From IMG/VR virus record IMGVR_UViG_3300032397_000001: a stretch of DNA of 64,000 nt. One strand, given 5' to 3'. The notes below the pieces were generated by a model, which saw only the letters and a list, made by a program, of their open reading frames with translations, ran no database searches and was not told where the DNA came from. The position numbers and the translations under genes were made by a program. Positions 1,539 to 61,747 of this stretch are shown in pieces (position 1 is the first letter of the stretch; each line of letters starts with the position of its first letter). The DNA comes from a virus.

Positions 1539-2601
1539 GAGGTTCGTCATGGAATTGGATTCAATAGGTATAATTCGTAAGGCGTTATCAGTAAGTGATG
1601 CACAATTCAGGATCCCTACTATACCTACAGGCCTTTTAACTCTCGACTTAATGGTTGGGGGTGGCTTTCCGTTAGGACGCACTACTAGTATAGCGGGCTT
1701 GGGGGGGTGTGGAAAGACAACATTAGTATGGACTTTTTTAGATAACGTCGCAAAATTAGGTGGAGTACCTGTTCTGATTGATACAGAATATTATTATACA
1801 GAGCAGAGGGTACAAGAATTAGGTTTAACTCATCTCGCCGAGAGAATAATTTTAAAGCATGAATTAACCACTGGTACTCTATTCACACAATTTAAGGAAA
1901 TCCTTGAGACGATTGCAAGTGTTAAGGGATATCGTTTTGGATTTATCGTAATTGATTCGTGGTCTGATACTCCTTCAGTAGAAGAAATGACATCAGGTAA
2001 GCCTGGTGTAGGTATTCATGCAAAGAGTGCAAGACATTTCTTTCGAAGTGCGTTACATTGGATGGTTAGGTTCAATATAGGTGTAATCTTTGTTTGTCAA
2101 TCTACAAAAAGAATTTCAACGATGCCGGGTTTTAAGGGAGGTTCTACATATCTTTCTCATGATGCGATATTTGCCAACTCTTTTTTAGAGATTCAAATGG
2201 CGCGCATCAAGAATATGAAAAAAGGTGGGGCTACTGTTGGCTTTCAGACAAAAGTTGATATTAAGAAAAATAAGTTGGCTCCTCCTTTTCAAGAATTAAC
2301 GTTAGACTATTATTTTCATTTAGGATATGACAGGGCTCGTAGTGTTCTGAATGCGTTAGTCAATTTAGGGTTGTCTTCTCATAGTAAAGGTTGGTATGCA
2401 ATTCCAGGGACTGAGGAAAAGATTCAAGCAGCGCAGCTGAGAAATAATCTCAAATTGTTTGATGCCCTTGAAACCTTAGCATATGAAGAAGGAATGAAAG
2501 CTTCTACAGTCGAGATTAAGGATGTGATTGATGGTGAGGATTTGAGTGCTCCTGATGCAGATATTGAAGTAGAGGACTACACACCTGAAGAAGGTGTATA
2601 A
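1537..2601 (+). CDS. recA: RecA/UvsX family recombinase (ATG at 1549 is a likely start)
   Basis: IPTGLLTLDLMVGGGFPLGR, Walker A GLGGCGKTT, IDTE, Walker B IVIDS, KKNKLAPPF. Confidence 0.93.
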   Translation: MRFVMELDSIGIIRKALSVSDAQFRIPTIPTGLLTLDLMVGGGFPLGRTTSIAGLGGCGKTTLVWTFLDNVAKLGGVPVLIDTEYYYTEQRVQELGLTHLAERIILKHELTTGTLFTQFKEILETIASVKGYRFGFIVIDSWSDTPSVEEMTSGKPGVGIHAKSARHFFRSALHWMVRFNIGVIFVCQSTKRISTMPGFKGGSTYLSHDAIFANSFLEIQMARIKNMKKGGATVGFQTKVDIKKNKLAPPFQELTLDYYFHLGYDRARSVLNALVNLGLSSHSKGWYAIPGTEEKIQAAQLRNNLKLFDALETLAYEEGMKASTVEIKDVIDGEDLSAPDADIEVEDYTPEEGV

Positions 2602-3311
2602 TGGCTCTAGATGTTCAGTTACATAAAGAAGCGTATCTATGTCATAGACAAGGTATGCGATTAGCTGAAATGGCTGACAAGATAAAAGTTTCAATAGCTA
2701 CATTACATAGATGGTCTTCTGATGACCCGTCATGTGATTGTTCTTGGCATAAATGGAGTGCTCTCAAATTACTTGATTCAGATGAGAATCATAGTCGAGC
2801 TTTAGGATTACGAGGATCAGGGCATAATGTTGAACAAATCAGTATTGGATTAGGTGTGCCTCTTGATATAGTTCAGTCTTGGGGGGATAAAAATTATCCT
2901 TGTATGTGTGGAAGTCATGGATGGCTTACTGGACTTACTGAAATAGTAGTTGCAGAAAAGCTTTCTCTTCCATCATTAGTAGTCATTTCTGACAGTGGAA
3001 CTATTAACAGTTCTCATACAACAGCTCTAATAACTGTTTTGGACTCTCTTTCACAGGCAGTTCAAAAAGGAGAAGTTGCGCTACGATCATGGCGTGATGT
3101 TTTAGATACACTGAAAATCTGCTCTGAAGTCATTGAAAAGTTAGGGTCTTTACCAAACGATAAAAAGCCATCTGTTGCAAGAATAAAGGAGTCGAGGACT
3201 GTAGAGTTCCCAATGAAGGAAGGTACCTCTGCAGATCTCACACGCAAAGCTAGTAGTCTGTCAGAGGAGTTAATGGCAACTGCAAGGGACTTTCGAGAGT
3301 CTAAACGGTGA
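2601..3311 (+). CDS. Putative terminase small subunit with two HTH-CxCxxHxW repeats
   Basis: HTH motifs (MADKIKVSIATLHRW; ISIGLGVPLDIVQSW); immediately upstream of TerL. Confidence 0.6.
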   Translation: MALDVQLHKEAYLCHRQGMRLAEMADKIKVSIATLHRWSSDDPSCDCSWHKWSALKLLDSDENHSRALGLRGSGHNVEQISIGLGVPLDIVQSWGDKNYPCMCGSHGWLTGLTEIVVAEKLSLPSLVVISDSGTINSSHTTALITVLDSLSQAVQKGEVALRSWRDVLDTLKICSEVIEKLGSLPNDKKPSVARIKESRTVEFPMKEGTSADLTRKASSLSEELMATARDFRESKR

Positions 3312-3514: not shown

Positions 3515-5668
3515 TTGACTCTCAATGATGAGGATTTTTATTTTCGTGTTGTCCTCAACTGTGATTTCTATCAGGAATTTCACCGTGATTGGTTTCGCTT
3601 TGGAGCTCAAAATTCAAGAACCCTCCTTTTAGGTCCTCGTGATTCTTTAAAGTGTGCTCACCCGTTAACTCTTATCCCTTCTGATGATTCTGTCTCCTAT
3701 CTTTTTTCTTTGAAACGTAATCAAGAGATTTCTTCAGTCTTTAAGAGCTTATCTTCACGTGTTCAGGTTAGAGGTGAACGAGATGTCAAAAGAGTTTTTC
3801 GTGTAAAGGTTGGGCCTCCTTTTGACTTTTGGGTCTATCTTTCCCCTGAACATAAAGTTTTTTGTTATGATGTGGTTCAGGATTCCTTTGACGTTGTTGA
3901 GACGCAAAAGTTAAGTAAAACATCTCATCTTGTATTCCTCGCTCGACCCCCTATATTCAATCCTTTATTATCTGTTAAATCAAAAGAAAAGTTGAAGCTT
4001 ATTCTTGCGAACACATTTTCGTCGAAGAAGATTCTAGATGAGAACGTTCTAAAGATGAATACCAAATCTTTTTCTAGGCTTCTTGCTGTTATCGACGATC
4101 ATTATAAGCATGATGAATTAAAAGAAGCTCATTCATTTCTTTATAATAAATTACAAGTAATGAAATTTTATCATGGTCTTATTAAACCAGATTCAACTTC
4201 CGCGTTAACCCTTATGAAGGGGTCTTGTCTAAGAAATCGATCAAAGCTTGATCGGGATAAGATTGCCTTCTTGGTGGATGAACAGACAGATTTTGCACCT
4301 TCACCTGTTCAAGTTAATTCGGATTTTTGCTGCTTTGCATGTATTGAGGAGATAAAGGAAGTTCTTCTAGATGGGCCTGTTACATTTTTTGATTGTAATG
4401 TCACCAATTCACATTATATTGCAAATGGATTTGTAACTCATAATTCGACCTTTCATACTGTAGGCCGAGTCCTTCATGATGCTTTAGAGAACCCTGAGAA
4501 ACGTTATGCTATTATTTCAGCAACGAGTAAGTTAGCTGCGGGTCAAGTTTCAAGAATTCAGCGTATATGTCAAAGTAGTCCTGTTGTTAGGTATTGTTTT
4601 AGTGATGTAATTAATCCTAGAGAGATTCGTCGTTGGTCGGGTGAATCATTAGAATTTATTCGTAAGTCGATATATCCCGAACCTACTATTTGGGCTTTAG
4701 GTGTTGGAACGGATTTTACGGGTTTTCACTTTGAGGAGGCTTACTTCGACGATTTAGTTACAATACGACATAGGAAATCTGCCACTTTACGGACACAGAC
4801 ATGGGATTGGTTTCGTTTAACGGCTATCCCTGCATTAGACAAGTTGAGAGGTCGTGGTCACGTTATTGGTACTCGATATCATTGGGATGATATGTATGGA
4901 AAATTGTATGAGATCGCTCAATCATCTGGTGGGTGGAAAATTTCAAGAACTCCTGCCCTAGATGAGGAATTACTTTCACAGGATATTGCAAGGTCTTTTT
5001 GGCCTGAGAGATTTCCGGAAGAGGATTTACTTCAAATAAGATCAGATTATGGTGAAGATGTTTTTCAGTTGCAGTATCAATGCGCAGCAGGCATTGTATT
5101 AGCCGAACAAAATAAACAGTATATAGCTAAACTCCGAGACTCAATAGTACCCATGTCAATAAAAGATAAGGTGGTTGATATTGTGTTAGGTGTCGACTTA
5201 GCCTCTAGAGGAAGCGGTACATTACCTGATGCGAAAAAAGCTTCCTTCAGTATAAGTGCTACTGGAAAGCATATGGAGACAGGTAAGTTTATTACTCTTG
5301 AGGTCATTAAGATCAAACACCCCACTCTCAATGACAAGAAAGAGTGGGTTAAAACTATGCATAATAGATATAATCCGTTGCTTGTTGCGGTTGAAGCTCA
5401 TTCACAGCAGTCGGATTTTTTAGAATATTTAGCCGAGGATGATTTTCCATATTCAGTTAAACCCGTTAAGAGTTTTGAGTCTAAAGAAGCCCGATTTGAT
5501 TATGTATTAAACCTCATTGGTTCTGGATCTTTGTTTTTTGTGGAGGGAATGTGTCAACCTCTATTAGAAGAAATGTATATATTTCCAGAGACTACAGGAG
5601 ACGCTATTGATTCTGAGTTTTACTCGTTAAGAGCTTCTTATCGTGAGCCTAATATAAGATTCATGTAA
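3515..5668 (+). CDS. terL: Terminase large subunit, intein-containing; true start probably upstream of 3515
   Basis: Walker A GPRDSLK|S split by intein, Walker B AYFDDL, IGTRYHWDD, FWPERF, FQLQYQ, nuclease GVDLA and DAID. Confidence 0.93.
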   Translation: MTLNDEDFYFRVVLNCDFYQEFHRDWFRFGAQNSRTLLLGPRDSLKCAHPLTLIPSDDSVSYLFSLKRNQEISSVFKSLSSRVQVRGERDVKRVFRVKVGPPFDFWVYLSPEHKVFCYDVVQDSFDVVETQKLSKTSHLVFLARPPIFNPLLSVKSKEKLKLILANTFSSKKILDENVLKMNTKSFSRLLAVIDDHYKHDELKEAHSFLYNKLQVMKFYHGLIKPDSTSALTLMKGSCLRNRSKLDRDKIAFLVDEQTDFAPSPVQVNSDFCCFACIEEIKEVLLDGPVTFFDCNVTNSHYIANGFVTHNSTFHTVGRVLHDALENPEKRYAIISATSKLAAGQVSRIQRICQSSPVVRYCFSDVINPREIRRWSGESLEFIRKSIYPEPTIWALGVGTDFTGFHFEEAYFDDLVTIRHRKSATLRTQTWDWFRLTAIPALDKLRGRGHVIGTRYHWDDMYGKLYEIAQSSGGWKISRTPALDEELLSQDIARSFWPERFPEEDLLQIRSDYGEDVFQLQYQCAAGIVLAEQNKQYIAKLRDSIVPMSIKDKVVDIVLGVDLASRGSGTLPDAKKASFSISATGKHMETGKFITLEVIKIKHPTLNDKKEWVKTMHNRYNPLLVAVEAHSQQSDFLEYLAEDDFPYSVKPVKSFESKEARFDYVLNLIGSGSLFFVEGMCQPLLEEMYIFPETTGDAIDSEFYSLRASYREPNIRFM
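3653..4444 (+). mobile_element. Intein (264 aa) in TerL Walker A; no recognisable intact homing endonuclease
   Basis: N-terminal C (CAHPLTLI), block B SPEH, block F/G FFDCNV...HYIANGFVTHN followed by Ser+1. Confidence 0.9.
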
Positions 5669-5678: not shown

Positions 5679-5987
5679 ATGAAGTCTGTCACAATGTGTA
5701 TCTTTACTGATGAGAAACATCTTGGTGATGTGAAAAACTTAGTTTTGCCTGTAGATTCTACTCTTTACGTATTAGGTTTAAACAAGAAGGAACATAAGAC
5801 TTGTATACAGGTTGCGAAGAAGCATAGAGCGTTCAATTTATTAGAGGAGCATGGTATTGTGATGGTTATCATCGAAGCTGGTAACCGTCTTATAAAAGTC
5901 GCAGGGGCGGAAGCGATTGATCAATTTCTCTCCATGTATTTCGCTCAAACCCCTCAGAAGCCTGAAATAAATTTGGAGCGCTTGTAA
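5679..5987 (+). CDS. Hypothetical protein
   Basis: AAGGAG RBS; translationally coupled between TerL and portal. Confidence 0.7.
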   Translation: MKSVTMCIFTDEKHLGDVKNLVLPVDSTLYVLGLNKKEHKTCIQVAKKHRAFNLLEEHGIVMVIIEAGNRLIKVAGAEAIDQFLSMYFAQTPQKPEINLERL

Positions 5988-7315
5988 TGTCGAATACTGT
6001 TACGAAGGTTTGGCAGAGTACTCTTGGTAAGCTAGTTGAAGTAAAATTCTTTCCACGACGTACTCCTGAACAGATTCCACAAAGTAAAATCATCAAGGAA
6101 ACTTTGTCTGATTATCCTTCACCGGCTCAATTCCCCAATCTTTTTACTTTGTATAAGAGAAATTCCTGGATCTTTTCTTCTGTTAACATGATTGTGCAGT
6201 CTTGTGTTGCTGTGCCTTTACGTGTTCGTGATCGATCAACTAAACGTATTATTTCTCCTACTGAGACTACTGAAGTAGGAATAGTTTTAAAGTATCCTAA
6301 TCCATTTATGACTCAGATGGAATTGATGGAGCGTCTTTTTTTACATTTAGAGATTGTAGGGAATGCATTTTGGGAAATGGTAGTCCAGGGAAATAAACTT
6401 CTCGCGATTTATCCTCTTGATCCTACCTCGATGACGATTATACCTGATGCACGCAATCTTGTCAAGGAATATGTTTATTCGGTAAATGGGAAAGATACTC
6501 ACTTTGCGCCCAATGAGATTATACACTTTAAGTATGTTGATCCTCAGAGTGAATTTTGGGGCTGGGCTCCAGTAATGGTGATGATGCGTCAAGCCAGATT
6601 AGAAGACAAACTGAAAACATATGGTGAAAAATTCTTTGATAATGATGCTACCCCTAGTGTTGTTTTGAAGACAGACCGTATTCTTTCTGATCCTACTTAT
6701 GAACGTTTACGTAAACGGTGGCTGGAGCGGCATCAAGGCGCTGCGAATAAATTTTCTGTTGCAATTCTCGAAGATGGGATGTCTTTTGAAAAAGCTGGCA
6801 CAATAATGTCCGAGTTAGATTATTCTGCCATCGAGGATAAGGTTCGCGATGAAATTACAGTGTCGTCAGGAGTTCCTCCTACGTTGTTAGGGATTCCGGG
6901 AGTTGCAAATTATGCCTCCGCTCGAGTAGCTCAGTCGATGTTCTTTGATTCGATCATTGCACCTCGTTTACGTAAAATTGCAATGACTGTTGACAAAGAT
7001 ATAATGAATCGATTTGATCGTGATCGTGAAGCCGTCTTTGACACTTCGGTTGCACCCATAAATATTGTGAAGCTTAGTGCGAATTCTCGAGTGGTGGCTA
7101 GATTATATACGCTAGATCTTATGACTTTGGATGAAGCTCGAAATTTGTTAGGTTTAACTCCAGATGATAAAATAGGTGACAAATATAAGAGTGAAGTAGA
7201 TGCGGAGAGAAGAAAAAGGGCTGCTGCTAGTGAGGGAGGAGATTCTAGTACAGGAGCAGACGCAGGCAGCGCTGCTGAAGGGACTCAGCAGGACCCTGGT
7301 GATATAGGAGATTAA
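5987..7315 (+). CDS. Portal protein, HK97 family
   Basis: YPNPFMT, GNAFW, EIIHFK, FFDNDATP, AILEDGM, GVPPTLLG, MTLDEARNLLGL. Confidence 0.95.
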   Translation: MSNTVTKVWQSTLGKLVEVKFFPRRTPEQIPQSKIIKETLSDYPSPAQFPNLFTLYKRNSWIFSSVNMIVQSCVAVPLRVRDRSTKRIISPTETTEVGIVLKYPNPFMTQMELMERLFLHLEIVGNAFWEMVVQGNKLLAIYPLDPTSMTIIPDARNLVKEYVYSVNGKDTHFAPNEIIHFKYVDPQSEFWGWAPVMVMMRQARLEDKLKTYGEKFFDNDATPSVVLKTDRILSDPTYERLRKRWLERHQGAANKFSVAILEDGMSFEKAGTIMSELDYSAIEDKVRDEITVSSGVPPTLLGIPGVANYASARVAQSMFFDSIIAPRLRKIAMTVDKDIMNRFDRDREAVFDTSVAPINIVKLSANSRVVARLYTLDLMTLDEARNLLGLTPDDKIGDKYKSEVDAERRKRAAASEGGDSSTGADAGSAAEGTQQDPGDIGD

Positions 7316-7322: not shown

Positions 7323-8345
7323 ATGACTTTAGATGATCTTTTGAATGCAGCCTTAGGTAAGGTTAGTGATAAAGAACTTCTGGAAGGGCACCTCCGTTTA
7401 CATCAATGGTTTATGAATGCGCCAAAAGAGGATGTTAATGCTCGTCAGGATTTGTTAAGAGCCCATCAAAAAGTATACTTGGAATTCATTAGAAGGGGGC
7501 TGCATCATTCTCCTGGTGAGGGTATTGATAGAATTGATTTAGCATATCCTAAAATTGAAAGTTCAATGTATTCTGATTACTCTAATGCTGAAGCAATATT
7601 GGGCCAGAGTATTCCTAATACAAATGTGGGGTGGCATGCTTCATTGCATGACATTTGGATTGCGGTTAAAATGAGGATGGGTTTGACGAAACCTGAGGAA
7701 CAGTTGATTAATACTCATGACATTGTTACTAATAAAATGGGCCATCATCCTATTTGGGATGAATTGGATGCTGATTGGGTATCTCAGTTTAAAAGCTTTT
7801 CTATGATGGTAGATGAGGATCCTGAGTTTATTTCTCTAGAGAAGGTCCTTCAAGGTTTTCCTGATAAGATTACTCTTGTTTCAGGTGCGGTTACTTTTAA
7901 GAAAGGATCTATTTATATTGTAAAAGGAATTATGGGCTCTTTGCGTGTTGCGATTTTAGTCAAGTTGCTTCGGAGAACAACAGGTTCTGAGTTGCCCGAT
8001 CTGCCAGAAGATCCTGATAGTGTTTTTGATCTTGATTTGGTTAATCATAGAGTAGTTGATTCATTGATATTGTCTTATACTGATTCAGCTTTTCCTCCTT
8101 TATATTGGATTAGCCGACCATTTGTTTATCTGGTTGGAGGTGTTGTTGAAAGCAGGATTTCATTAGTAGATGCAGATATTTTGATTCGTAGTGGCCTTCC
8201 TGATTGGTTTTATCAACATGTAGTATCTACTCTGACTCTAGAACACCCAGAGGGGCATAATTTACATTTTTCGGCTGATATAGGTTTAGGGCCTTTATCA
8301 CATAATATTCCTCTGTATGATTTAGTGTTGGAGTTAGCCGTTTGA
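7323..8345 (+). CDS. Head-module protein with two His-rich repeats and a C-terminal Pol-beta-type nucleotidyltransferase-like domain
   Basis: Repeats HLRLHQW...AHQKV...HH and HASLHDIW...THDIV...HH; VYLVGG-x9-DADILI motif. Confidence 0.55.
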   Translation: MTLDDLLNAALGKVSDKELLEGHLRLHQWFMNAPKEDVNARQDLLRAHQKVYLEFIRRGLHHSPGEGIDRIDLAYPKIESSMYSDYSNAEAILGQSIPNTNVGWHASLHDIWIAVKMRMGLTKPEEQLINTHDIVTNKMGHHPIWDELDADWVSQFKSFSMMVDEDPEFISLEKVLQGFPDKITLVSGAVTFKKGSIYIVKGIMGSLRVAILVKLLRRTTGSELPDLPEDPDSVFDLDLVNHRVVDSLILSYTDSAFPPLYWISRPFVYLVGGVVESRISLVDADILIRSGLPDWFYQHVVSTLTLEHPEGHNLHFSADIGLGPLSHNIPLYDLVLELAV

Positions 8346-8896
8346 TACTTCAAATTGGGCCTGCTAAAGTAGAGATTTCGATTGATGATGGTGCCACCTT
8401 CTCTGAAGCTTTCGCGTCATCAGAAGCTAATATTACTCTCAATTTTCAGTATCGTGATCGTGTCAATGATGGTGTAGTAGTTGAATCTGCATATGAATCA
8501 GCTACTTTAACATTTGAATTGAACGCTACAGAATGGTCAATAGATGTTCTGAAGGCATTGTTCCCTTTTAGTTATTCTTATACTGATGCACCTACAGGAG
8601 TTCCCCGCACTACTAGAAGTCATCTTTTTGATTTGGGGGGTTTGACAGAAGAAGTTGAGACTAGTAATTATACACAATGTATTGTGTTTAAGAATGTACC
8701 TACCTGCTGGATAAAGTTTACACCTAATGTTACAGGCAAGGCAATAGGAGCTGAAATTCCAAAGGCAAGATTTGCTGAGGAGTTATCCATTCCGTTTGCA
8801 CCTTCACAGGAAGTAATACCTATTAAAGGAATAGGAATGAAATCACCTAATCAAAGTTTATTACTTATTTGGATGAATCAATGTATAATTCTATGA
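8342..8896 (+). CDS. Tail tube-like protein, paralog of major tail protein 20268..21416
   Basis: IGPAKV...ESATLTFELNATEWSIDVLKAL aligns by eye with IGPCVV...ETATLKFESIEWNLANLAKAL. Confidence 0.55.
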   Translation: MILQIGPAKVEISIDDGATFSEAFASSEANITLNFQYRDRVNDGVVVESAYESATLTFELNATEWSIDVLKALFPFSYSYTDAPTGVPRTTRSHLFDLGGLTEEVETSNYTQCIVFKNVPTCWIKFTPNVTGKAIGAEIPKARFAEELSIPFAPSQEVIPIKGIGMKSPNQSLLLIWMNQCIIL

Positions 8897-8909
8897 TAGG
8901 CAAAAAAAT

Positions 8910-8936
8910 TTGGCATCAGAGTCGCCAGGTTATAAT
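8910..8936 (+). promoter_or_regulatory. Candidate promoter for the methyl/glycosyltransferase insert
   Basis: TTGGCA-N15-TATAAT after an A-tract; also fits GG-N10-GC sigma54 spacing; spacing is suboptimal for sigma70. Confidence 0.35.
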
Positions 8937-9038
8937 ACGTAAGATTGTAAGATCGTGTTGTGGCAAGACAAGATTTCTTGTCGAAGACTCCAAGACAGGA
9001 AAACAAGAAATGATTATCGGCCGCCTTCCAGGTCAAAG

Positions 9039-9494
9039 ATGACTCCTCAAGTCTTAGAATTTGTACAAAAACTAAATTTACAAGGCCGAACACTTGATGT
9101 TGGAAGTATGGATGTCAATGGAAGTGTTCGTGATTTTTTTATAAACTATATTGGTCTTGACATGCGCCTTGGGAAAAATGTTGATATAGTTGCGAAGGCA
9201 AATCATCTTCCTTTCGTTAGTAATTTATTCGATAATGTGACATGCCTAGAAATGCTGGAGCACGATGATTGTTTCTGGGAAAGCATTCCTGAAATGATAA
9301 GAGTGTTAAAGATAGGTGGTTCTTTCGTTTTAACTGCTAGAGGAATTCATTTTGAGAAGCATGAATATCCTCATGATTATTGGCGCTTTACAAAAGAATC
9401 TTTTGAATTACTATGTAAAGGTTTAGCGAATATTGTTTGTATTGATGAAACCGGTGAAAGTGGTGTGTTCTTATGTGGAGTGAAGGGTGCCTAA
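9039..9494 (+). CDS. Class I SAM-dependent methyltransferase (ORF open from 8955)
   Basis: TLDVGS, IGLDM, CLEMLEH, RVLKIGG, HEYPHDYWRFT. Confidence 0.88.
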   Translation: MTPQVLEFVQKLNLQGRTLDVGSMDVNGSVRDFFINYIGLDMRLGKNVDIVAKANHLPFVSNLFDNVTCLEMLEHDDCFWESIPEMIRVLKIGGSFVLTARGIHFEKHEYPHDYWRFTKESFELLCKGLANIVCIDETGESGVFLCGVKGA

Positions 9495-11073
9495 ACTTTC
9501 TGTTTCTGTTGCAGTAATGAATCAGAAGGAGATCACTCAAACTTTTTTTGAGTCGTTGTATGCATTTACTATAGACTTTGAATTGATTATAACAGATAAT
9601 GGATCAGGCGATGAGACAGCTCAATTTCTAAGTGAGTTTGTTCAGGCTCACGAGAATGCGGTTCTCATTAGACACAAGTTGAATGTAGGATTTGGTAAAG
9701 CACACAATATAGCTTCACGTCGTGCTCAAGGCCAGTTTTTTGCTGTTTTAAATAACGACATTGAATTTTTTGAATTCTGGGCTGAAAAACTGTATCCTCT
9801 GTTCGATGAATCTAATGTTGCATTAGTAGGGCCATCAAATGGAGTTTGTAATTCGTTAACACCAGATGCACAAGGAGTATTCAACCCCGAGAAAGTAAAT
9901 GATCCTGATTACTGTGAAGGGTCATGTTTAATGATGCGAACTAAGCTAGCGCGTAAGTTTGGTCCATTCGACGAGGCTTATAGACTAGGATATTATGAAG
10001 ACTCAGACTTAGGAATTCGAATAAGGAAGGCAGGCTTCAAGTTAAAGACTGTACCTCTTGATTGGGTTCACTATCGTGCAAAGACTTCTTCTGCTGTAGC
10101 TGAAACACTTGATATACCAGGAATCCATTTTGTTAATGAGCAGATCTTTCGACGTCGATGGACAAGTTATCTTCTCCGTAAAAGGTTTGGTAAAACGTAT
10201 ATTATACAACGCAAAGGATCTCATGGAGATGTTCTCTTAACTACTCCAATTATTGAAGCAATTAAGAAAAGAGAGCCTGAATCAGTAATTTGTTTTTCTA
10301 CACAATGTCCTGAGACTATAGCAAGAAATTCTCAGATTGATTATCTAATCCCTCCTGATCTTCCATTTCAATGTGATGAGTTCATTAATCTGGACAGTTC
10401 TTATGAGAGGAGATTTAATGAGCATATTATTGATGTGTATGCTCGTGTAGCAAAAGTAAAAGTATTAAGGAAGAGAGCAAAGGTTACTTTGTTGAAAGAC
10501 GACTTCAAATTTATTGAGAGGTATCTTCCCCCCAAATTTAACTCTTATATAGTAGTTGATGTTAGTGATACATGGCAAGGAAAACAGTGGACTATTGAGA
10601 ATTGGGCTGGAGTTACTGAAGAATTAAGGAAACACAACATCACAGTTGTGTCTGTAGGCATTTCTAAAACACGCAATCTGAAAGGGATTGCACAAATAGA
10701 TCTTATCAATAAATTAAGCATATCGCAAACGTCTGCTGTGATTTGTCGTGCTGCAGGATTCATAGGAGCTGAAGGATTAACCGCTCATGTATCTCAGGCT
10801 GTTGACACCCCCTGTTTAGTTCTATATGGATGCACTTCTCCTCAATATGTTAGTTGTTCAGATGCAATGATTGAGCATGTAATTTCATCTGTTGCATGTC
10901 AAGGTTGTAGACATGTTTCATACCCTTCTGGAGTTACAGTTATTTGTAAACGTGATTATGAATGCATGAAGCGCATAACGGTTCAACACGTAATAGATCA
11001 GTTTGCTGTGTTAATGCAAAAATATGGCAAATTAGAAAAGGTAGTCCATTTGAAGGACGTTCCTAATGCGTAA
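9487..11073 (+). CDS. Glycosyltransferase fusion: GT2 (GT-A) plus GT9 heptosyltransferase-like (GT-B)
   Basis: IITDNGSGD, GFGKAHN, LNND, YYEDSDLG; then HGDVLLTTP, KQW, FIGAEG..AH, LYG. Confidence 0.9.
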   Translation: MPKLSVSVAVMNQKEITQTFFESLYAFTIDFELIITDNGSGDETAQFLSEFVQAHENAVLIRHKLNVGFGKAHNIASRRAQGQFFAVLNNDIEFFEFWAEKLYPLFDESNVALVGPSNGVCNSLTPDAQGVFNPEKVNDPDYCEGSCLMMRTKLARKFGPFDEAYRLGYYEDSDLGIRIRKAGFKLKTVPLDWVHYRAKTSSAVAETLDIPGIHFVNEQIFRRRWTSYLLRKRFGKTYIIQRKGSHGDVLLTTPIIEAIKKREPESVICFSTQCPETIARNSQIDYLIPPDLPFQCDEFINLDSSYERRFNEHIIDVYARVAKVKVLRKRAKVTLLKDDFKFIERYLPPKFNSYIVVDVSDTWQGKQWTIENWAGVTEELRKHNITVVSVGISKTRNLKGIAQIDLINKLSISQTSAVICRAAGFIGAEGLTAHVSQAVDTPCLVLYGCTSPQYVSCSDAMIEHVISSVACQGCRHVSYPSGVTVICKRDYECMKRITVQHVIDQFAVLMQKYGKLEKVVHLKDVPNA

Positions 11074-12070
11074 ATTGAAGGTATGTTTCTTATCCGCAGA
11101 TACTGGAGGATCTGGGTATTATCGTACAAAGTTGCCTGCGAAGTATTTACAACAGAGTCGATATGATGATCTTGAAGTTATGCACTATGATGATTTCAGG
11201 TTGATTAAAGATCCCTTCGATGTTTTAATAATACAACGTCAATGGAGAGATCATATTCTTGTTTGGTGTCTACAGTTAAAAAAGCAGGGTACGAGAATCA
11301 TTTTTGAATTAGATGACAATTTATGGTCTATTCCATCAACTATAGATTCTCATAAAATATATCAACTTGACACGCTACATAAAATAGAAAACTTTATTCG
11401 TATGAGTAATGCTGTAATTACCACTTCTGATCCTCTTAGAGTAATCTTATCGCAATTCAATTCAAATGTATGTGTTATTCCTAATTTTGTAGAGATTCCT
11501 GAAATCATTCCGCAGTTGCCGAAGCGTAGAATAAAAATCGGGTTTTGTGGAAGTGTATCTCATGTTGAGCATCTTAAGATTTTAACTCCTATTTTAATTC
11601 GATTGAATGCGATCTGCCCCAAGATTGAATTAATTGTTATGGGATTACCGTGCCCAGAATTGAGTTTGTACGCAACAACGATTTTACCGGCTTCTCCTGA
11701 GTCTTTTATCAATGCATTGGCTTCTCTTGAGCTTGATATCGGTCTCGCATATGTATTTGACAATATTTTCGATAAATGTAGAAGTTGGTTGAAGTTTTTA
11801 GAGTATTCTATCACGGGTGCTGTGACGGTGGCTCCGAATCTTGAACCATATTCAAATATTATTACAAATGGTGAAAATGGTATTTTAATAAATAAGGATT
11901 CAGATTGGCTCTCCACTTTAACTGAGCTTGTGAAAAGTGGAGATTACAAATCGATGGCAAGAGTCGCTTATCAAGAAACTTTGAATTCTTGGTTAATACA
12001 AAATAATGTTTATCGGTGGTATAATGTTATTCAGGAGACTGTAGATGGACAAAGAGAACAATGTGCGTGA
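11066..12070 (+). CDS. GT-B fold glycosyltransferase (GT4-like)
   Basis: GSGYYR...P, FELDDNLW, VIPN, IGFCGS..H, DIGLA, KFLEYS. Confidence 0.85.
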   Translation: MRKLKVCFLSADTGGSGYYRTKLPAKYLQQSRYDDLEVMHYDDFRLIKDPFDVLIIQRQWRDHILVWCLQLKKQGTRIIFELDDNLWSIPSTIDSHKIYQLDTLHKIENFIRMSNAVITTSDPLRVILSQFNSNVCVIPNFVEIPEIIPQLPKRRIKIGFCGSVSHVEHLKILTPILIRLNAICPKIELIVMGLPCPELSLYATTILPASPESFINALASLELDIGLAYVFDNIFDKCRSWLKFLEYSITGAVTVAPNLEPYSNIITNGENGILINKDSDWLSTLTELVKSGDYKSMARVAYQETLNSWLIQNNVYRWYNVIQETVDGQREQCA

Positions 12071-14603
12071 AGCTGACGCGCAAGCTAAAACCAATGAACT
12101 TTTAGGTCCTGGACACTTCTTCTGGGTTCCAAAGACATCAGTTTCTATAGTTAGTTATCGAGAGGCTGAAGTATATTCAGTCACACAACTTATGGAATAT
12201 GTTGATCTTCTTGAAAGAAAGTATCATACATTTCCTGAGATAGCTATTCAAAAGAAGTATGATGGTGATAATATCGAGTTTCACCGGGATACTCATGGGA
12301 AGTTTACAATTTTTACGGATAATGGATCTACGGTTACGAATCGTGTACCTGGCCTCATTAAGCTTTCAGAGAAACTTTTTTCTGATAAGTCATATATTCT
12401 AATTGGTGAATTGGAAGGATGGTCTCATGGTGTTCATTCTGGTCGTGAACAAGTCTCAGGATATTTGAATGCACAAACTCCTCCTAATGATTCTACGTTG
12501 TGTATAAGCTTTTTCGATTGTGTGTGGTTTGATGGAAAGGATTTGCATGGTGAGCCGTATAATGTGAGATATGGGCTTCTCGAGAAAGAGTTCAAGATTT
12601 CTCAATCACTCATAACCAATTTGCAACCCGGTTTCAATCTTGCGCCAACCTTCATAGTTAAAGCGAAAGCTGCTTTACAGAGTGCAGTGCAACAGGTAGT
12701 ACGACCAAGAGAAAGCGAGGGCGCCGTTCTTAAGATTTGGAATGGGTTTAAATTTTCCCTAAACAAGAGTGCCAATGAGATGATTAAGTTTAAGAAATGG
12801 GCAGAAGCTCATTTTGTTGTATTACAGAAACGTCAAATTGCAGGGTCAAAACAAACGTTTCAGTATTGGATAGGTATTAAGGTTTTGGTGTCTGAGCGTG
12901 ATACTGTTGTTCAGAATAAGGTTGAGGAATATGGTGGACAGAATTACTTGCGTTGTGCCAAGACATTTAACACGAATGTCCAAGCAAAGGTAGGTGATAT
13001 AATTACAGTTAGATTTAGCAATGTTTTTGTATATCATGAACAGGATAAAATCTATTTTGGTATTTATGCGCCCAATGTTTATGAGAATAGAACTGTGCAA
13101 CAGCATGATGAGGAACCTGATACTGTTTCTACATTGTTAAGGATAGGGGAAGAGTCTGGACTGATTGTGCAGAAAGGTATAGGAGTTTTCATTTCTAAGG
13201 CTACTGATGCTTTCATGCAATATCCTCCAGAAGCAAAACCTTGCAAGTATGTTATGCAAGAACATTTCAGAGGGAAGACTGCTCATATTGATTTCCGTAT
13301 CCAGTCTATTTCAGATACTTTGATTGGTTATACTATCATGAATCAGGTTGAGGGAAAGATTAAGACCCCAATTCTAAATGTAGCACAAGGGCGTAAAGTT
13401 TTAAAACAGTCTGATAATTGGAAGTTTGATGCTATCAAAGGTATTTTTCAACGACGTCGAATTGCAGGTGGAGAGATTCGATTTGCCAGTCTTCAGGTTG
13501 CACTCAAACAATCGGAGCCAGAAAATTGGCTTTCAGTAGAGGGCGTTTCCGAAGTTGGTGGGACGGGAGCCACTTCAAAATGGCCTGGAGTATTTGTCAT
13601 TGCATCGCAAGGACAGTTAGCATATGGCTATCGAGAAGTTTACTTTCACGAGTATTTTGTGTATAATGATAAATGGCCTGATGGGGGTCTCCGAATGTTG
13701 TTTAGACTTCTCTCAGGTCCTGAATTACAGCAAGCATCAATTCCGATATCGAATTTGTTAGAACCTTTCACTGATGAACCTGACAAGTTTACTGTTGAGA
13801 ATAACGAAATTATTTTTGATAATGGAACGATTTCTATGCATGACTTCGAAGTAGATCGTCTTGGCAAATCTCTGCATAAGATACTTCCTCCTTCGGAGGA
13901 GCCTGGGCGTGAAATGCCTTTTGTTTGGCTTCTAGTTAAACCAAAAACGAATGAACCATATATATTATCTGCGCGGGCAAGGCTGAAAAAGAAATATTCT
14001 CCTGTAGGAGTATCGACTTTACCTGCTTCGGTCAAGAAACAAATCCCTGCTTCCTTGAGATATTGGGAAGCATCCTCTTCACAGAAGATGCAAGCTATGC
14101 TTGATGAGCTGAGAGATAAAATTAAAGGACATGAAGTCGAGTTGGACTATAGTGATAAGGTTGTTTTCAAACGTGCAAGTAGCTTTGTTTTGGAAAAGGC
14201 AGCTGAGTCAAGTTATATCTTGAAGCGACGCTGGTGGCGGGGGCCCATAGTTATCAGATTGGGATCATCTGCGGAATTTTATGATTTGTATTTCCAAAAA
14301 GATCAGGAATGGGATCAGTTTATTTTAACGCAGAATCCTGTTAACTATGATTCATTCGCAGGATGGTTACGAATTAATATTACCCAAGATGAAGTTAATT
14401 TTGAGGGAACTTTGCCCCCTGGTCATGAGCTCAATCCAAATAAAAAGTTAGCAGCCGAGACGAAGATTGTTGGATCAGGTACTTTTAGTTTGAATGAGAT
14501 ATCCCGTGATGTTTGGCAATTAGAATTTAAAGATGGAACTTTGAAGGATAGATCTTTTACAGCGACGCGTGATGCTGGTATATGGAAGTTTAGTTTGGGT
14601 TGA
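12045..14603 (+). CDS. ATP-dependent DNA ligase fused to LigD 3'-phosphoesterase-like domain(s)
   Basis: Ligase motifs QKKYDG, ILIGEL, FFDCVWFDGKDL, SEGAVLK, MIKFKK plus OB fold; PE-like YVMQEH...AHIDFRI; degenerate second copy YILKRRWWRG...FYDL. Confidence 0.8.
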   Translation: MDKENNVREADAQAKTNELLGPGHFFWVPKTSVSIVSYREAEVYSVTQLMEYVDLLERKYHTFPEIAIQKKYDGDNIEFHRDTHGKFTIFTDNGSTVTNRVPGLIKLSEKLFSDKSYILIGELEGWSHGVHSGREQVSGYLNAQTPPNDSTLCISFFDCVWFDGKDLHGEPYNVRYGLLEKEFKISQSLITNLQPGFNLAPTFIVKAKAALQSAVQQVVRPRESEGAVLKIWNGFKFSLNKSANEMIKFKKWAEAHFVVLQKRQIAGSKQTFQYWIGIKVLVSERDTVVQNKVEEYGGQNYLRCAKTFNTNVQAKVGDIITVRFSNVFVYHEQDKIYFGIYAPNVYENRTVQQHDEEPDTVSTLLRIGEESGLIVQKGIGVFISKATDAFMQYPPEAKPCKYVMQEHFRGKTAHIDFRIQSISDTLIGYTIMNQVEGKIKTPILNVAQGRKVLKQSDNWKFDAIKGIFQRRRIAGGEIRFASLQVALKQSEPENWLSVEGVSEVGGTGATSKWPGVFVIASQGQLAYGYREVYFHEYFVYNDKWPDGGLRMLFRLLSGPELQQASIPISNLLEPFTDEPDKFTVENNEIIFDNGTISMHDFEVDRLGKSLHKILPPSEEPGREMPFVWLLVKPKTNEPYILSARARLKKKYSPVGVSTLPASVKKQIPASLRYWEASSSQKMQAMLDELRDKIKGHEVELDYSDKVVFKRASSFVLEKAAESSYILKRRWWRGPIVIRLGSSAEFYDLYFQKDQEWDQFILTQNPVNYDSFAGWLRINITQDEVNFEGTLPPGHELNPNKKLAAETKIVGSGTFSLNEISRDVWQLEFKDGTLKDRSFTATRDAGIWKFSLG

Positions 14604-14656: not shown

Positions 14657-14758
14657 GAGACCTGTAGAGGTTCTGCGTGCTTGTGACGTAGAACCTTTTA
14701 TGCATGATGTCTCATAGTTTTCATTTGGTTGGCATTTAAGGAGGACTTTCATTATGCC
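14657..14758 (+). promoter_or_regulatory. Structured 5' leader or terminator upstream of 14754 gene
   Basis: Stem aggttctgcgt/acgtagaacct inside gagac/gtctc; ggcat/atgcc pairing over the start codon. Confidence 0.4.
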
Positions 14759-15401
14759 TACTTACAAAAACAACAGGTCCGAACGTTTGGTTGTTATGGG
14801 GATTGCCTTTCTTCCGGGTCAACAGAAGACGACTGACAAGATCTTGATGGAAACCACTCTTGAGGTTTCTGCAATATCAACCGCTTTCCAGGTAGGTGAA
14901 ACTGTCAGTGCTGGATCTCCTACAGCGACTGGGAAGATTTTGAGAGTTAGGACAAATCCTGATCTCTTGGATCTTGTTGGTCGCAATAGCAACGATTTCG
15001 TGACAGGTACTACCCTTACGGGTGGAACTTCGAGCTGTTTTGCGAGCGTTGAACGAATCAGTGAGTTGGTAACAGCCATCTCGGCCGAGCCGTATTACAA
15101 TCCCAAGACAACTGCTCATACGGTGACTGCTAGTGGGGCTGAAGTTGAAGTGATGTATCTCTCCGACTTTTTCAATACCAGATATCTCAAGATTTCGGAT
15201 GTGTCGGGGGGTATCACCATTGATATTTATTTCCGTAGTGAGTCTAACACACCTGCGGTCGTTGACGGAATGGGAAACATCGATGATCCCATTATTCTCG
15301 CTGTTAATCAGAATGTGGAGTGCCTAGCAATTGATTTCTCCGGAGCGGGAACCTGTATCGTGGAGGAATTCACAACTCTTGAAGCCGCGGAGATTGGATA
15401 A
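14754..15401 (+). CDS. Putative virion structural/decoration protein
   Basis: FQVGETV...ATGKI...FVTGTTLTGGTS beta repeat seen in phage structural proteins; strong RBS; upstream of protease. Confidence 0.5.
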   Translation: MPTYKNNRSERLVVMGIAFLPGQQKTTDKILMETTLEVSAISTAFQVGETVSAGSPTATGKILRVRTNPDLLDLVGRNSNDFVTGTTLTGGTSSCFASVERISELVTAISAEPYYNPKTTAHTVTASGAEVEVMYLSDFFNTRYLKISDVSGGITIDIYFRSESNTPAVVDGMGNIDDPIILAVNQNVECLAIDFSGAGTCIVEEFTTLEAAEIG

Positions 15402-15420: not shown

Positions 15421-16440
15421 ATGCCTAAAGTACAACTCAAGAAGCTCTTGAAGCCTGTCAAGTTTGAGGCAAGCCTTCATATCGAGAAGATTCAGGAAGT
15501 TCCTGAGTCTGATCAAAGCAATGCTGAAATCAAACGCATTGTTGAAGGTTATGCAATTGTTGCAGGTAACGTTGACGAGCAGAGAGATCGTATTGAACCC
15601 AGTGCTCTAGCGAAAGCAGTAGAGTACCTTAAGAGCTATACTACTGTTCTGTTTAATCATGATCCGAATCGACCCATTGGCAAGATTCTCGACATTGCAG
15701 TGCGCGAAGCCAAAATCTGGGTGAAGGTGCTCATCAGTAATTCCGAAGATGAAATCTGGGGTAAGGTTGTAGAGAAGATTATTAACAGTTTCTCTATCAG
15801 TGGAGAAATCGATGAATTCGCTTATGAATATGACAAGGCTCTACAATCTCAGGTTCGGGTCATAAAGAGTTTTAGGGTGTATGAAATTTCTTTGGTTTCA
15901 GTACCCGCAAATTCTGAGGCTAAGACTTTTAACGCGTATATTTCCAAATCGCTTCAGGACGCAGGGTACAGTTTTGAGTCTACGAATGAGGACCAATCGA
16001 ATGTATCGGAAATGCTTGAGTTCCTTAACATTGGCATGGAGGTCGTGAAAGCTATGGACTGGAAAGAAAAACTCACAAAGGCAATCAAGGCGTTGGGTGA
16101 TGTGGCCGCAAAGATCGAAGATGCGCAGGTTCGGGATACTCTCAAAGAGATCCAGAAACTGTTGACAGATGTGGCCGCAGAGGTTCCCCAGAATTATCCC
16201 GCTGCCAACAAGGATCTCCAGGACGCGCTCGACAAAATCAAGGGCTTGGAAGGCAAGATTGGTAGTGTCGAGAAGACTCTTGCAGATCGTCTTGAAAAGG
16301 TGGAAAAGGATCTGGGGAGTGTCGATGAGATCCTCGGTGGTATGACCGAAATGCTCAAGTCCTCGGGCGAGACTGACGCAGCAGCTGCGGCGAAAGCTGC
16401 TGCGGCGGCGGCGAAAGGCACTCATATCAGCGCTGACTAA
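15421..16440 (+). CDS. Prohead protease (HK97/S78-type) with C-terminal coiled-coil scaffold-like region
   Basis: VEGYA, VDEQRD, VLFNHD...PIGK, SFSISG, EISLVSVPAN. Confidence 0.92.
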   Translation: MPKVQLKKLLKPVKFEASLHIEKIQEVPESDQSNAEIKRIVEGYAIVAGNVDEQRDRIEPSALAKAVEYLKSYTTVLFNHDPNRPIGKILDIAVREAKIWVKVLISNSEDEIWGKVVEKIINSFSISGEIDEFAYEYDKALQSQVRVIKSFRVYEISLVSVPANSEAKTFNAYISKSLQDAGYSFESTNEDQSNVSEMLEFLNIGMEVVKAMDWKEKLTKAIKALGDVAAKIEDAQVRDTLKEIQKLLTDVAAEVPQNYPAANKDLQDALDKIKGLEGKIGSVEKTLADRLEKVEKDLGSVDEILGGMTEMLKSSGETDAAAAAKAAAAAAKGTHISAD

Positions 16441-16504: not shown

Positions 16505-17866
16505 ATGAAAAATTTGGAGATAGCCAAGAAATTGATCCATGACGCAGCTCTGCTTCGTAAGACGCAGGCTGACCAGTCACAGGTCAATGAATTGGTCAAA
16601 ACGGCTATTGAGCAACAGATGAAGGCTCTCGGCGGTCAGCCCTCTCTGCGTAAAGGACAATTCAATCTCAGTATGGCGAATGCAGTTGCCGTCGGTGGCG
16701 CCAAGGGACAGCCTCTGCAGAAGGCTCTTCTGAGTCCGGCGGGTAAGGCTGATGATGCGCGCGAGTTCCAGAAGATGAGTGATACCGTATATATCACTTC
16801 GGTACTCGTCGGGTGCCATCCGACCGATCTTGAGTGTTACAAGATGCTCAGGAGCAACAAGCTGTTCAAGGACGCGTACTCGTCAGGCGATTTCGACGCT
16901 ACGTGGTGGTGGCCGGACACTCTTTCTCGTGACATGATCGAAGAGGTCGAGAAGGAGTTGAAGGTTGCGGCTCTCCACAGAACGATTCAGATGCCTACCA
17001 ACCCGTACAAGATCCCTGCGAAATCGGGTAGGACGAAAACTTATCTGGTTGGGGAGTCAACTGACGACGCGGGGACCAAGCCGTCTTCCAGCAAGGGGCC
17101 AACTCCTGGTACCGGTATCACCTTCGATGCAAAGAAGCTGATGGCGTATTCCATTGTGTCGGAGGAAACCAGCGAGGATATGGTCCTCCCCATCATTGAT
17201 CTCATCAAGGAAGATGTCGGGAAGTCCATGGCCGAGGCTATCGAGACTGCTGTTCTCAACGGTCAGATCGTTGCAGAGACCATCGATACCGCGGCAGCTT
17301 ATGCTGCGAACGATTCTGTTCGCGCATGGAATGGATATCGAGTGCACGCTCTTGGTGGTGGATGGACAGTTGACTTCTCAGGGTGGACCAAGTCAACGGC
17401 AGTTGACTTGATGAGGAAACTCAGGGCGACCATGGGAAGGTATGCTGTCGGAATCGACAAGCTGGCGTGGTTGGTATCCATCAATGGGTACAATCATCTG
17501 CTCAACACTGAAGAGATGTTGACCCTTGACAAGTACGGCGCCAATGCGACTCTGCTCAAAGGTGAGCTCGGAAGGTTTGATAACATTCCGATCATCATCA
17601 CTGAGTTCCTTCCTGAGAATCTGAATGCATCAGGGGCTTACACTTCGGATGTCGACAACGACAATACTTGTGTTCTCTTGGTGTACAAGGATGGTTGGGT
17701 TCACGGTGAACGAGCAAGCTTTACTGTGAAACAGGGCGAGGAGATCAAGACGGACCAGAAGTATTTGATCTCTCGCGCTCGTAGGGATTTTCAGCCCCTT
17801 TATATGGGGACCTCGTATTCTCAGTCTATCGTTGCAGCTGGTTATGGCTTGCCCAATACCCTGTAG
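16505..17866 (+). CDS. Major capsid protein, HK97 fold, with N-terminal delta domain
   Basis: P..LSRDMIE, VGE, ITFDAKKL...VSEE..ED, E.AVLNG, GRFDNIPII; position after protease. Confidence 0.93.
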   Translation: MKNLEIAKKLIHDAALLRKTQADQSQVNELVKTAIEQQMKALGGQPSLRKGQFNLSMANAVAVGGAKGQPLQKALLSPAGKADDAREFQKMSDTVYITSVLVGCHPTDLECYKMLRSNKLFKDAYSSGDFDATWWWPDTLSRDMIEEVEKELKVAALHRTIQMPTNPYKIPAKSGRTKTYLVGESTDDAGTKPSSSKGPTPGTGITFDAKKLMAYSIVSEETSEDMVLPIIDLIKEDVGKSMAEAIETAVLNGQIVAETIDTAAAYAANDSVRAWNGYRVHALGGGWTVDFSGWTKSTAVDLMRKLRATMGRYAVGIDKLAWLVSINGYNHLLNTEEMLTLDKYGANATLLKGELGRFDNIPIIITEFLPENLNASGAYTSDVDNDNTCVLLVYKDGWVHGERASFTVKQGEEIKTDQKYLISRARRDFQPLYMGTSYSQSIVAAGYGLPNTL

Positions 17867-22357: not shown

Positions 22358-22975
22358 ATGTACAAAACTCGATGGGTGAAGAGCCTTTCAGGGAAGTGGT
22401 ATAAGTTTAGGACTCCTGTCTCATTGGAGTTGGAATTAAATCTGGTCTCCCTGCTGCAGTCTTCATTAGATCCCTTGTCTGTGATTTCAGATGCTGTTTC
22501 TGAAATTCTTGATCTTTCCCCTGTTGTAGTTGACGCAGAATTTACTGGTGATCAAATACTTAATGTTTTTAACTTAGCCTTTCCCAAGGTAAATCCTGAA
22601 GAGTCCTCTCAAAAGCTTGAAGAGGTTCAAATTAATTTAGAGAAGGAGGGTGGATCGCTTATTGATTCGTTATCGAAGATGTTAACTTTTTTGACGTTCT
22701 ATGGGCGATTTCAACCTTCTGAAATTCTGAGATTGCCTAGAGCAACCGTTGAAGAAATTCTTAGAGAAACTACCGGGCTACTTGAGGCCGATAAGAAGTT
22801 TCAGTTTGAACTCTCTGTAGTTCATGCTTTAGGTATGATCTTCGGAGAGGGCAAATCGTCAGGCTCAAGTAGCTCTTCGTTTAATAAGGATACTGTAGAT
22901 CTTTCGAATATAGGTGAAGAGGATCTCGGTAAAATTCCTCCTGATATGAGGAGTTTTATAAAGGTAGTCAAGTAA
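22358..22975 (+). CDS. Putative second tail assembly chaperone
   Basis: Directly upstream of TMP; QPSEILRLP motif resembling chaperone C-termini. Confidence 0.5.
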   Translation: MYKTRWVKSLSGKWYKFRTPVSLELELNLVSLLQSSLDPLSVISDAVSEILDLSPVVVDAEFTGDQILNVFNLAFPKVNPEESSQKLEEVQINLEKEGGSLIDSLSKMLTFLTFYGRFQPSEILRLPRATVEEILRETTGLLEADKKFQFELSVVHALGMIFGEGKSSGSSSSSFNKDTVDLSNIGEEDLGKIPPDMRSFIKVVK

Positions 22976-52673: not shown

Positions 52674-53054
52674 ATGAGAAAGATTGTATTTGCAGTATCG
52701 TGTACATTCCTAATCGGTATCAACTTAACTCATTGTCATCAGTGTACGGTTTCTCGCGTGATAGATGGTGATACTATTGAATGTGCTGAATTCATTCGGC
52801 ATATTAGACTTGAAGGAATTGATACTCCTGAAGTAGGTGATCAACATGGCCTTATAGTTAAGGAGGTACTTGAAACATTCATTCTCGGAAAGGAGGTGAC
52901 ATTTAGGTATAATCATTGTGATCACTATGGTCGTATTGTAGGTACTGTTTATGAAGGAGGTGATAACATTAACAAAGCAATGCTTAGATGTATCTATGTG
53001 AAACCATTTAGGTGGAAAGATCAATCACGTAATCAACAATGTGAGATTGAATGA
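52674..53054 (+). CDS. Thermonuclease (SNase) family protein with signal-like N-terminus
   Basis: VIDGDTI, IRLEGIDTPE, DHYGRIVG, INKAML. Confidence 0.85.
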   Translation: MRKIVFAVSCTFLIGINLTHCHQCTVSRVIDGDTIECAEFIRHIRLEGIDTPEVGDQHGLIVKEVLETFILGKEVTFRYNHCDHYGRIVGTVYEGGDNINKAMLRCIYVKPFRWKDQSRNQQCEIE

Positions 53055-59606: not shown

Positions 59607-59700
59607 TTTGGATGCAGCTCGAGGAATTGTGTATGGAACGATTGCTGGTTTTGTTTGTTGGGGAATTATACTTCTACTTTATTACGTGTTAACACTATGA
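59593..59700 (+). CDS. Small single-TM protein (35 aa)
   Basis: MMNPDLDAARGIVYGTIAGFVCWGIILLLYYVLTL*; ATGA overlap with next gene. Confidence 0.5.
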   Translation: MMNPDLDAARGIVYGTIAGFVCWGIILLLYYVLTL

Positions 59701-60669: not shown

Positions 60670-60686
60670 CTTTGTAACCTCGACTT

Positions 60687-60760: not shown

Positions 60761-60779
60761 TTTCTTTAGTTAGATAAAA

Positions 60780-61729: not shown

Positions 61730-61747
61730 TATTTGGGGGCCTCTTGA

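Follow-up and report, generated by a model that had tools for sequence, protein, structure and literature searches.

The window, a stretch of 64,000 nucleotides of viral DNA (IMG/VR record IMGVR_UViG_3300032397_000001), carries between its portal and prohead protease genes two genes whose products, P0002 and P0001, are by their sequences the split form of one enzyme. Written in domain order, this enzyme is NTase-ligase-PE-PE', with a nucleotidyltransferase (NTase), an ATP-dependent ligase, a 3'-phosphoesterase (PE) and a second, altered PE domain, and it represents a large, unnamed protein family with a new domain core. Whether the set is carried in the prohead, ejected with the DNA and used for healing and sealing the incoming genome before viral gene expression is, in our judgement, evenly balanced. 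An earlier note on this DNA had proposed a virion-packaged end-repair kit at this place. Both open reading frames (ORFs) do lie on the + strand between portal and protease, and the interpretation is partly supported, its capsid loading and ejection standing midway between doubtful and probable. The genes and domains concerned are the following.

5987-7315, + strand: portal protein (PF04860, 3.7e-53; phrog_2662, 3.9e-60), upstream anchor of the conserved gene order
7323-8345, + strand: P0002, 340 amino acids, His-rich helical units and probable NTase module
12045-14603, + strand: P0001, 852 amino acids, predicted ligase and two PE domains
12045-13169, + strand: residues 1-375 of P0001, with N-terminal helices, adenylation domain (residues 61-255, K71 as nucleophile) and OB domain (residues 256-375)
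13227-13724, + strand: residues 395-560 of P0001, PE1
13725-14189, + strand: residues 561-715 of P0001, a variable segment and then a conserved linker
14190-14603, + strand: residues 716-852 of P0001, PE2
15421-16440, + strand: prohead serine protease (S78; PF04586, 4e-14; PF14550, 3.7e-5)
16505-17866, + strand: major capsid protein (MCP) of the HK97 fold family (PF05065, 6.7e-10), downstream anchor of the conserved gene order

As judged from sequence and predicted structure, P0001 contains an ATP-dependent DNA ligase domain of the covalent nucleotidyltransferase superfamily, as the earlier note had claimed. Residues 62-250 match PF01068 at 5.2e-16 (59.4 bits against a cut-off of 26.2). In alignment A1, which consists of P0001 and 14 homologues of 27-53% identity, motifs I (K71-x-D73-G74), III (E122), IV (E225-G226-K230) and V (K248/K251) are invariant and the motif IIIa residue D158 is conserved, and the K, D and G columns of motif I are also invariant or nearly so in 30 distant family members. 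The AlphaFold model of P0001 based on A1 (mean predicted local distance difference test score, pLDDT, 82) places an adenylation domain before an OB domain and finds DNA ligases as the nearest fold (Foldseek E 3e-16).

The ligase is followed by two PE domains, which had been described beforehand as one intact-looking and one degenerate. This description holds, and PE1 is predicted to belong to a divergent branch of the LigD-type 3'-phosphoesterase family. The putative metal site of PE1 (H407, H414, D416 and R418) looks intact, and the domain contains an insertion of ~50 residues. A PE1 profile made from 32 diverse sequences (alignment A3) matches the archaeal PE structures 3p4h (1.1e-4) and 3p43 (1.5e-3), whose H..H.D.R motif aligns onto these four residues. 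All 32 homologues have H414, D416 and R418, and at least 90% have H407 and R409; the four site residues correspond to His42, His48, Asp50 and Arg52 of Pseudomonas LigD. The LigD_N family (PF13298) gives no match in P0001 at E<=0.01, and in relatives it stays below threshold, at best 2.5e-5 in 3 of 30 and, in another scan, 14.6 bits against a cut-off of 31.1. The PE2 profile matches 3p43 (2e-9), 3p4h (3.4e-7) and the PE domain of Pseudomonas LigD (3n9b, 0.015). PE2 has lost both catalytic histidines and is probably non-catalytic. PE1 and PE2 align as homologues (hhalign 96.7%, E 3e-10), and the PE beta-barrel fold is found in the predicted structure. The linker between them (W628, P638, Y639, P660) is conserved in A1 and occurs in all but a few of the 167 family proteins surveyed below; no family or fold could be assigned to residues 561-715.

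P0002 was modelled (pLDDT 89) as two helical, His-rich units (residues 1-150) followed by an alpha/beta half. The earlier note had ascribed His-rich repeats and a Pol-beta NTase motif to this protein, of which the two His-rich units and the motif GG-x10-DxD stand, while the NTase assignment is only probable, with many weak and concordant matches. The module concerned (residues ~165-340) would be a minimal NTase of the Pol-beta type with an ~85-residue insertion inside it, and the motif, formed by G271-G272, ten further residues and D283-A-D285, lies in the last ~80 residues. G272 and D283 never vary in two sets of homologous modules (31 and 57), and D285 occurs in at least 90%; D319 is present in P0002 as a possible third carboxylate, in a column that is not strictly conserved in homologues. 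P0002 itself has no Pfam match that reaches threshold and no PHROG match. When the 57-module profile was compared with the PDB, all 23 matches at E<10 were chains of the Pol-beta superfamily, with a nucleotidyltransferase best (0.085), followed by Pol beta (0.17), terminal deoxynucleotidyl transferase (TdT; 0.27) and Pol X of African swine fever virus (ASFV; 0.93). Scanned singly with Pfam, 22 of the 57 modules gave a sub-threshold match (DNA_pol_B_palm in 11, NTP_transf_2 in 8, Polbeta in 3), and no family recurred outside these Pol-beta types. A structure search of the Atlas with the NTase returned a 107-residue minimal NTase at a template modelling (TM) score of 0.56, and a Foldseek search of the P0002 model against the PDB returned nothing at E<=0.001. 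The predicted NTase fold is weakly but consistently supported, and the His-rich N-terminal half matches only generic helical repeats.

The relationship of the two proteins follows from the wider family. A profile search over 1.84 billion representative proteins, with clusters at 50% identity, gave 991 clusters with E<=1e-30 (5419 with E<=1e-3), and the proteins mostly have 1000-2200 amino acids. From the family 167 proteins were retrieved for a survey with domain hidden Markov models cut from the alignment, and 30 were scanned with Pfam. Nearly all of the 167 show the order ligase, OB, PE1, linker, PE2. In longer family proteins the helical unit and the NTase module of P0002 are found directly N-terminal to the ligase, the module being fused in 109 of 167, and in unfused cases a P0002 homologue is encoded immediately upstream of the ligase gene (in L002 with 28% identity, 2e-22). 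It is on these grounds that P0002 and P0001 are read as the split form of NTase-ligase-PE-PE'; the window version is a reduced form of the multidomain family proteins. The search for P0002 homologues yielded one stand-alone homologue, and further ones were taken from genes neighbouring the ligase gene.

Members of the family also carry added domains. Among the 30 Pfam-scanned relatives these are a Dam methylase (14), an XkdF-type prohead protease (S78_2; 11), inteins (4), a 2H phosphoesterase (4) and a metallo-beta-lactamase (3), with Dcm, uracil-DNA glycosylase (UDG) and pyrimidine-dimer glycosylase in one relative each. In the larger set, the XkdF-type protease ends 29 of the 167 members, where it stops 0-28 residues from the C-terminus and retains an invariant His and Ser. 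These residues align with H80 and S125 of the separate prohead protease in the window, the C-terminal half of which is a coiled coil of scaffold-like appearance.

Several variants of the architecture were seen. In L025 (1323-5513) the order is permuted to NTase, PE1, PE2, ligase, OB and XkdF protease. In L015, the closest relative in IMG/VR (55% identity), positions 9989-12659 hold two overlapping ORFs, one for ligase-OB (416 amino acids) and one for PE1-PE2 (511 amino acids), which could be a genuine split or could result from a frameshift or from faulty assembly. The P0002 homologues of L006 (7275-8882) and L015 (7108-8715) are enlarged to 535 amino acids by a metallo-beta-lactamase-like segment inserted after the first helical unit, which parallels the Lactamase_B_2 fusions of distant family members. 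Relatives P0025 and P0026 have a canonical-looking motif VI (PRV..R.DK). P0010 and 3 others of the 30 contain inteins, with LAGLIDADG homing endonucleases, within the ligase-PE protein; inteins usually occupy conserved sites of essential genes.

The second line of evidence is the genomic address. Loci were gathered by exact-protein look-up and from IMG/VR, and were annotated by iterative profiles seeded from Pfam-verified genes. At every locus with enough flanking sequence the order is portal, (NTase), ligase-PE, (protease), MCP, all on a single strand. Both flanks are present in 16 loci, and at least one head gene stands in the expected place in 27 of 27 non-duplicate loci. The genes are closely packed with those of the head, overlapping or nearly abutting their neighbours. 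A neighbourhood survey had been named in the earlier note as a check of its proposal, and at every locus examined the homologues proved to lie in head modules, none being in a replication module. Of the three findings that by the earlier note would refute its proposal, two were looked for, namely homologues mostly in replication modules and predicted structures lacking the PE or NTase fold; neither was obtained, although for the NTase fold the support is weak. The position between portal and protease or MCP is held down to ~25% identity and across two portal families. The second of these was recognised in the archaeal virus ANMV-1 (L001, KP703175), in which the gene just before the ligase-PE homologue (1913-3193) matches Phage_portal_3 at 3.2e-22; its label as a 'MutT-like phage hydrolase' was rejected, the gene being a portal gene of a different family. 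A profile scan of genome contigs with alignment A8 yielded only three loci, which lie in bacterial metagenome-assembled genomes (MAGs). At loci with protease-fused members a stand-alone protease gene before the MCP gene is missing, and the fusion fills the canonical protease slot.

These observations allow a mechanism to be proposed, in which we infer that the set is incorporated into the capsid, is ejected from it, acts on DNA and does so early. The family protein would be made alongside the head proteins and built into the prohead. Prohead proteases assemble inside the shell, as in HK97 and T4, and therefore the rest of a fused polypeptide would be expected inside as well. In relatives loading would be direct, through the C-terminal prohead-protease domain, and in this virus it would proceed through non-covalent contact. 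The fusions to an intact C-terminal prohead protease and those to Dam or Dcm methylases fit a capsid-borne cargo, and the frequent Dam and Dcm fusions resemble anti-restriction cargo whose injection is known (P1 DarB) or predicted (PMC5512222). The enzyme would then exit the capsid with the DNA and meet nicks, damaged ends or cohesive ends on the incoming genome. There the PE domain would clear 3' ends blocked by a phosphate or a ribonucleotide, while adding or filling a nucleotide would fall to the NTase and sealing the break to the ligase. A more general proposition, to which we give slightly less than even credence, is that, among the uncultured tailed viruses that infect bacteria and archaea, many have such a LigD-like healing-and-sealing machine in the capsid, probably already adenylated and loaded via the prohead protease or scaffold, and that after ejection together with the genome it repairs at once virion damage, nicks and cohesive ends, or cuts by host nucleases.

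A number of observations weigh against this reading. The P0001 of the window is itself not fused to a protease, and a targeting signal could not be recognised in it. Motif VI is degenerate in the clade of the window, where P343, V345 and R349 are kept and the DK pair is missing. His84 and Tyr88 of the Pseudomonas LigD PE domain are replaced in PE1 by E491 and an invariant W495, and because of these replacements the chemistry of PE1 may differ. The matches from which the NTase is assigned are all below threshold. Among 50,697 phage records the sole match is ANMV-1, itself a metagenomic assembly, and no cultured virus was found with the core. Finally, in four related viral records, 22-75% complete, this enzyme is the sole ligase found, each record having one match to an ATP-dependent ligase and none to an NAD-dependent one, which leaves room for a general or a late DNA-maturation role.

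The late role survives best among the alternatives, as a minority possibility that we take seriously. According to it, the proteins are cytoplasmic DNA-maturation enzymes that mend nicks, gaps and blocked ends in concatemers for packaging and are not part of the virion. Such a function would suit a gene that lies, and presumably is expressed, together with the packaging genes for the large terminase (TerL), portal and MCP, as well as the status of sole ligase. Zachary and Black are also said to have found, in 1981, that the T4 DNA ligase is needed for DNA encapsidation. However, the prohead protease found intact at the extreme C-terminus of relatives, in its canonical slot, would put those relatives inside the prohead, and the Dam and Dcm fusions are closer to capsid-borne anti-restriction cargo than to maturation enzymes.

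A general DNA ligase or repair enzyme for replication and recombination, to which the position in the head module lends no functional meaning, is improbable. The lone ligase match per record would suit it too, and a RecA gene lies nearby, upstream of the terminase gene. However, the position between portal and protease or MCP is kept in every locus in spite of the divergence described above, protease fusions occur, and a replication enzyme made from a late operon alone would be unusual.

About equally improbable is an RNA repair set that heals and seals tRNAs or other RNAs cut by host anticodon nucleases or defence RNases. The PE domain of LigD acts on 3' ribonucleotides and the Pol-beta NTases include CCA-adding enzymes; furthermore, the 2H phosphoesterase of the four relatives is 2',5' RNA ligase-like, and weak matches to the Pfam family RNA_ligase occur in some relatives. 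The commonest fused partners (Dam, Dcm, UDG and pyrimidine-dimer glycosylase), however, have DNA as their substrate. A structural or scaffolding head protein made of enzyme folds without catalysis is very improbable, for although PE2 clearly has no catalytic residues and the gene occupies the usual position of a minor head or scaffold gene, ligase motifs I-V, the His/His/Asp/Arg set of PE1 and the G...DxD of the NTase are invariant or nearly so across very divergent homologues.

For the preferred reading, that of a repair set carried in the particle, several known systems offer comparisons. Bacterial LigD is the ligase of non-homologous end joining (NHEJ), consists of PE, LIG and POL domains and works with Ku. 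Like LigD, the family combines, in one polypeptide or operon, an ATP-dependent ligase that is devoid of a large DNA-binding domain with a 3'-phosphoesterase of the PE type and a nucleotide-adding module, and the His/His/Asp metal ligands and the Arg are all present in PE1. In L025 the PE domains precede the ligase, an order shared with some bacterial LigD proteins. Unlike LigD, the family has a minimal Pol-beta-type NTase in place of a POL domain of the archaeo-eukaryotic primase (AEP) type, none of which appeared in any Pfam scan of window proteins or relatives. In addition, its PE domain is duplicated with a probably inactive second copy, His84/Tyr88 are changed to Glu/Trp, and the gene is viral and located in a head module. 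No Ku was found in the four related viral records, all of them incomplete. The archaeal stand-alone PE proteins (3p4h, 3p43) give the best sequence and structure matches of both PE domains, but are single-domain cellular proteins, whereas here the domain occurs twice, is joined to a ligase and, as PE1, carries the insertion.

A different kind of precedent is provided by virion-borne proteins. DarB of the Dar system of phage P1 is known to travel with the DNA and protects it on entry. The large eukaryotic DNA viruses ASFV (with Pol X, ligase and AP endonuclease) and Cafeteria roenbergensis virus (CroV) package base-excision repair enzymes in their virions. The concept is shared with the carriage proposed here: the particle brings along an ATP-dependent ligase and a minimal polymerase of the Pol X type for repair of the genome on entry. 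The NTase profile also weakly matches ASFV Pol X, besides Pol beta and TdT. However, these viruses belong to unrelated lineages, their proteins are separate, and the family NTase has ~110 residues with no recognisable fingers or thumb.

Among tailed viruses, the closest concept is that of the polyvalent proteins, which are large, multidomain, encoded beside portal or MuF genes and often equipped with DNA methylases and peptidases, and which are predicted to accompany the DNA into the cell and shield it on entry (Iyer et al. 2017, PMC5512222). Members of the present family likewise have several unrelated catalytic domains per polypeptide beside head genes, and their fusions follow the logic of these injected proteins. 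The MuF domain of minor head proteins of the SPP1 gp7 type was not found in the window proteins, neither Pfam nor PHROG detecting Phage_Mu_F in any ORF between portal and protease. Ligases appear in that work only as ATP-grasp RNA ligases and its phosphoesterases are of other families; neither the NTase-ligase-PE-PE' core nor its fusion to the XkdF protease is described there (PMC5512222). Literature searches for the NTase-ligase-PE combination in phage heads found nothing relevant. A DNA methyltransferase fused at its C-terminal end to the same XkdF-type protease occurs beside the portal gene of PAK_P1-like Pseudomonas phages, phiPsa374-like phages and Rhizobium phage RHph_Y1_11, but these fusions do not have the ligase and PE core. 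The same phages are cultivable systems for the proposed loading of cargo by protease fusion.

To our knowledge, the functions that tailed viruses bring into the cell have so far been RNA polymerases, anti-restriction proteins and toxins. If the set is virion-borne, DNA repair and end-joining would join them. The set could then account for the survival of particles whose DNA is damaged in the environment or meets a first attack by nucleases, and prokaryotic viruses would have an equivalent of the repair enzymes that giant viruses of eukaryotes carry in their virions. Fusion to the prohead protease may be a general route for cargo into HK97-type capsids. Whatever the outcome, a large unnamed family has been defined that has a fixed core and a fixed address between portal and protease or MCP, and that represents a compact, apparently Ku-independent relative of LigD which might yield new enzymes for ligation and end healing.

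Within the window, the interval between portal and protease also contains genes other than those of the set, together with which it is made up of these additional features.

8342-8896, + strand: P0004, 184 amino acids, no function assigned, no Pfam or PHROG match
8955-9494, + strand: S-adenosylmethionine (SAM) methyltransferase (Methyltransf_11, 1e-6)
9487-11073, + strand: fusion of glycosyltransferases of families 2 (GT2) and 9 (GT9) (Glycos_transf_2, 1.5e-17; Glyco_transf_9, 1.3e-12)
11066-12070, + strand: glycosyltransferase (phrog_7162, 1.7e-32)
14754-15401, + strand: P0003, 215 amino acids, no function assigned, no Pfam or PHROG match

The earlier note had treated the set as one kit; its place between portal and protease is confirmed, but the inserted methyltransferase and glycosyltransferase genes had been overlooked. 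Because these and the 184-residue ORF lie in the interval, the P0002 and P0001 genes are not adjacent in the window, as they are in relatives. The cassette at 8955-12070 is absent from the equivalent position in all related loci, and is therefore regarded as a local insertion unrelated to the set; its methyltransferase and glycosyltransferases were considered as parts of the repair set and rejected for this reason. Homologues of P0004 with 181-183 amino acids are found at the corresponding place, between the NTase and ligase genes, in the closest relatives only (L006, L015 and the contig with P0007). Homologues of P0003 lie in the same position, between ligase-PE and protease, in L006 and L015, that is, in the closest relatives only.

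Nearly all long ORFs of the window are on the + strand and together form the structural module of a tailed virus, to which the following genes belong or are adjacent.

1537-2601: RecA-like protein, upstream of the terminase genes
2601-3311: small terminase-like protein
3515-5668: large terminase (TerL), 717 amino acids, with a weak Intein_splicing match at residues 108-310
22975-38907: tape measure protein, an ORF of 5310 amino acids with a PhageMin_Tail domain at residues ~3050-3230

The TerL proteins of relatives have 752-841 amino acids, and that of L007 also has a weak intein match; given these sizes and the matches in both proteins, an intein in TerL is likely. Tape measure proteins usually scale at ~0.15 nm of tail per residue, which for 5310 residues predicts a tail of ~0.8 micrometres. 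No tRNA genes were found in the window, and promoter-like and terminator-like sites are not more frequent in it than in shuffled sequence, with no terminator standing out.

Downstream lie genes for a 992-residue protein with a CAP (cysteine-rich secretory protein) domain (48025-51003), a staphylococcal-nuclease-like protein (52674-53054) and an NlpC/P60 peptidase that is likely a lysin (58692-59132). This peptidase, together with the binning of relatives with bacterial MAGs, suggests a bacterial host. Anaerobic methanotrophic archaea of the ANME-1 group, considered in view of the ANMV-1 match, are probably not the host on the same grounds. Further genes for sugar and methyl transfer form a second group at 59655-63447, with Methyltransf_11, Methyltransf_24 and GT2 members, and together with the cassette at 8955-12070 they point to a heavy investment of this virus in glycan or methyl modification.

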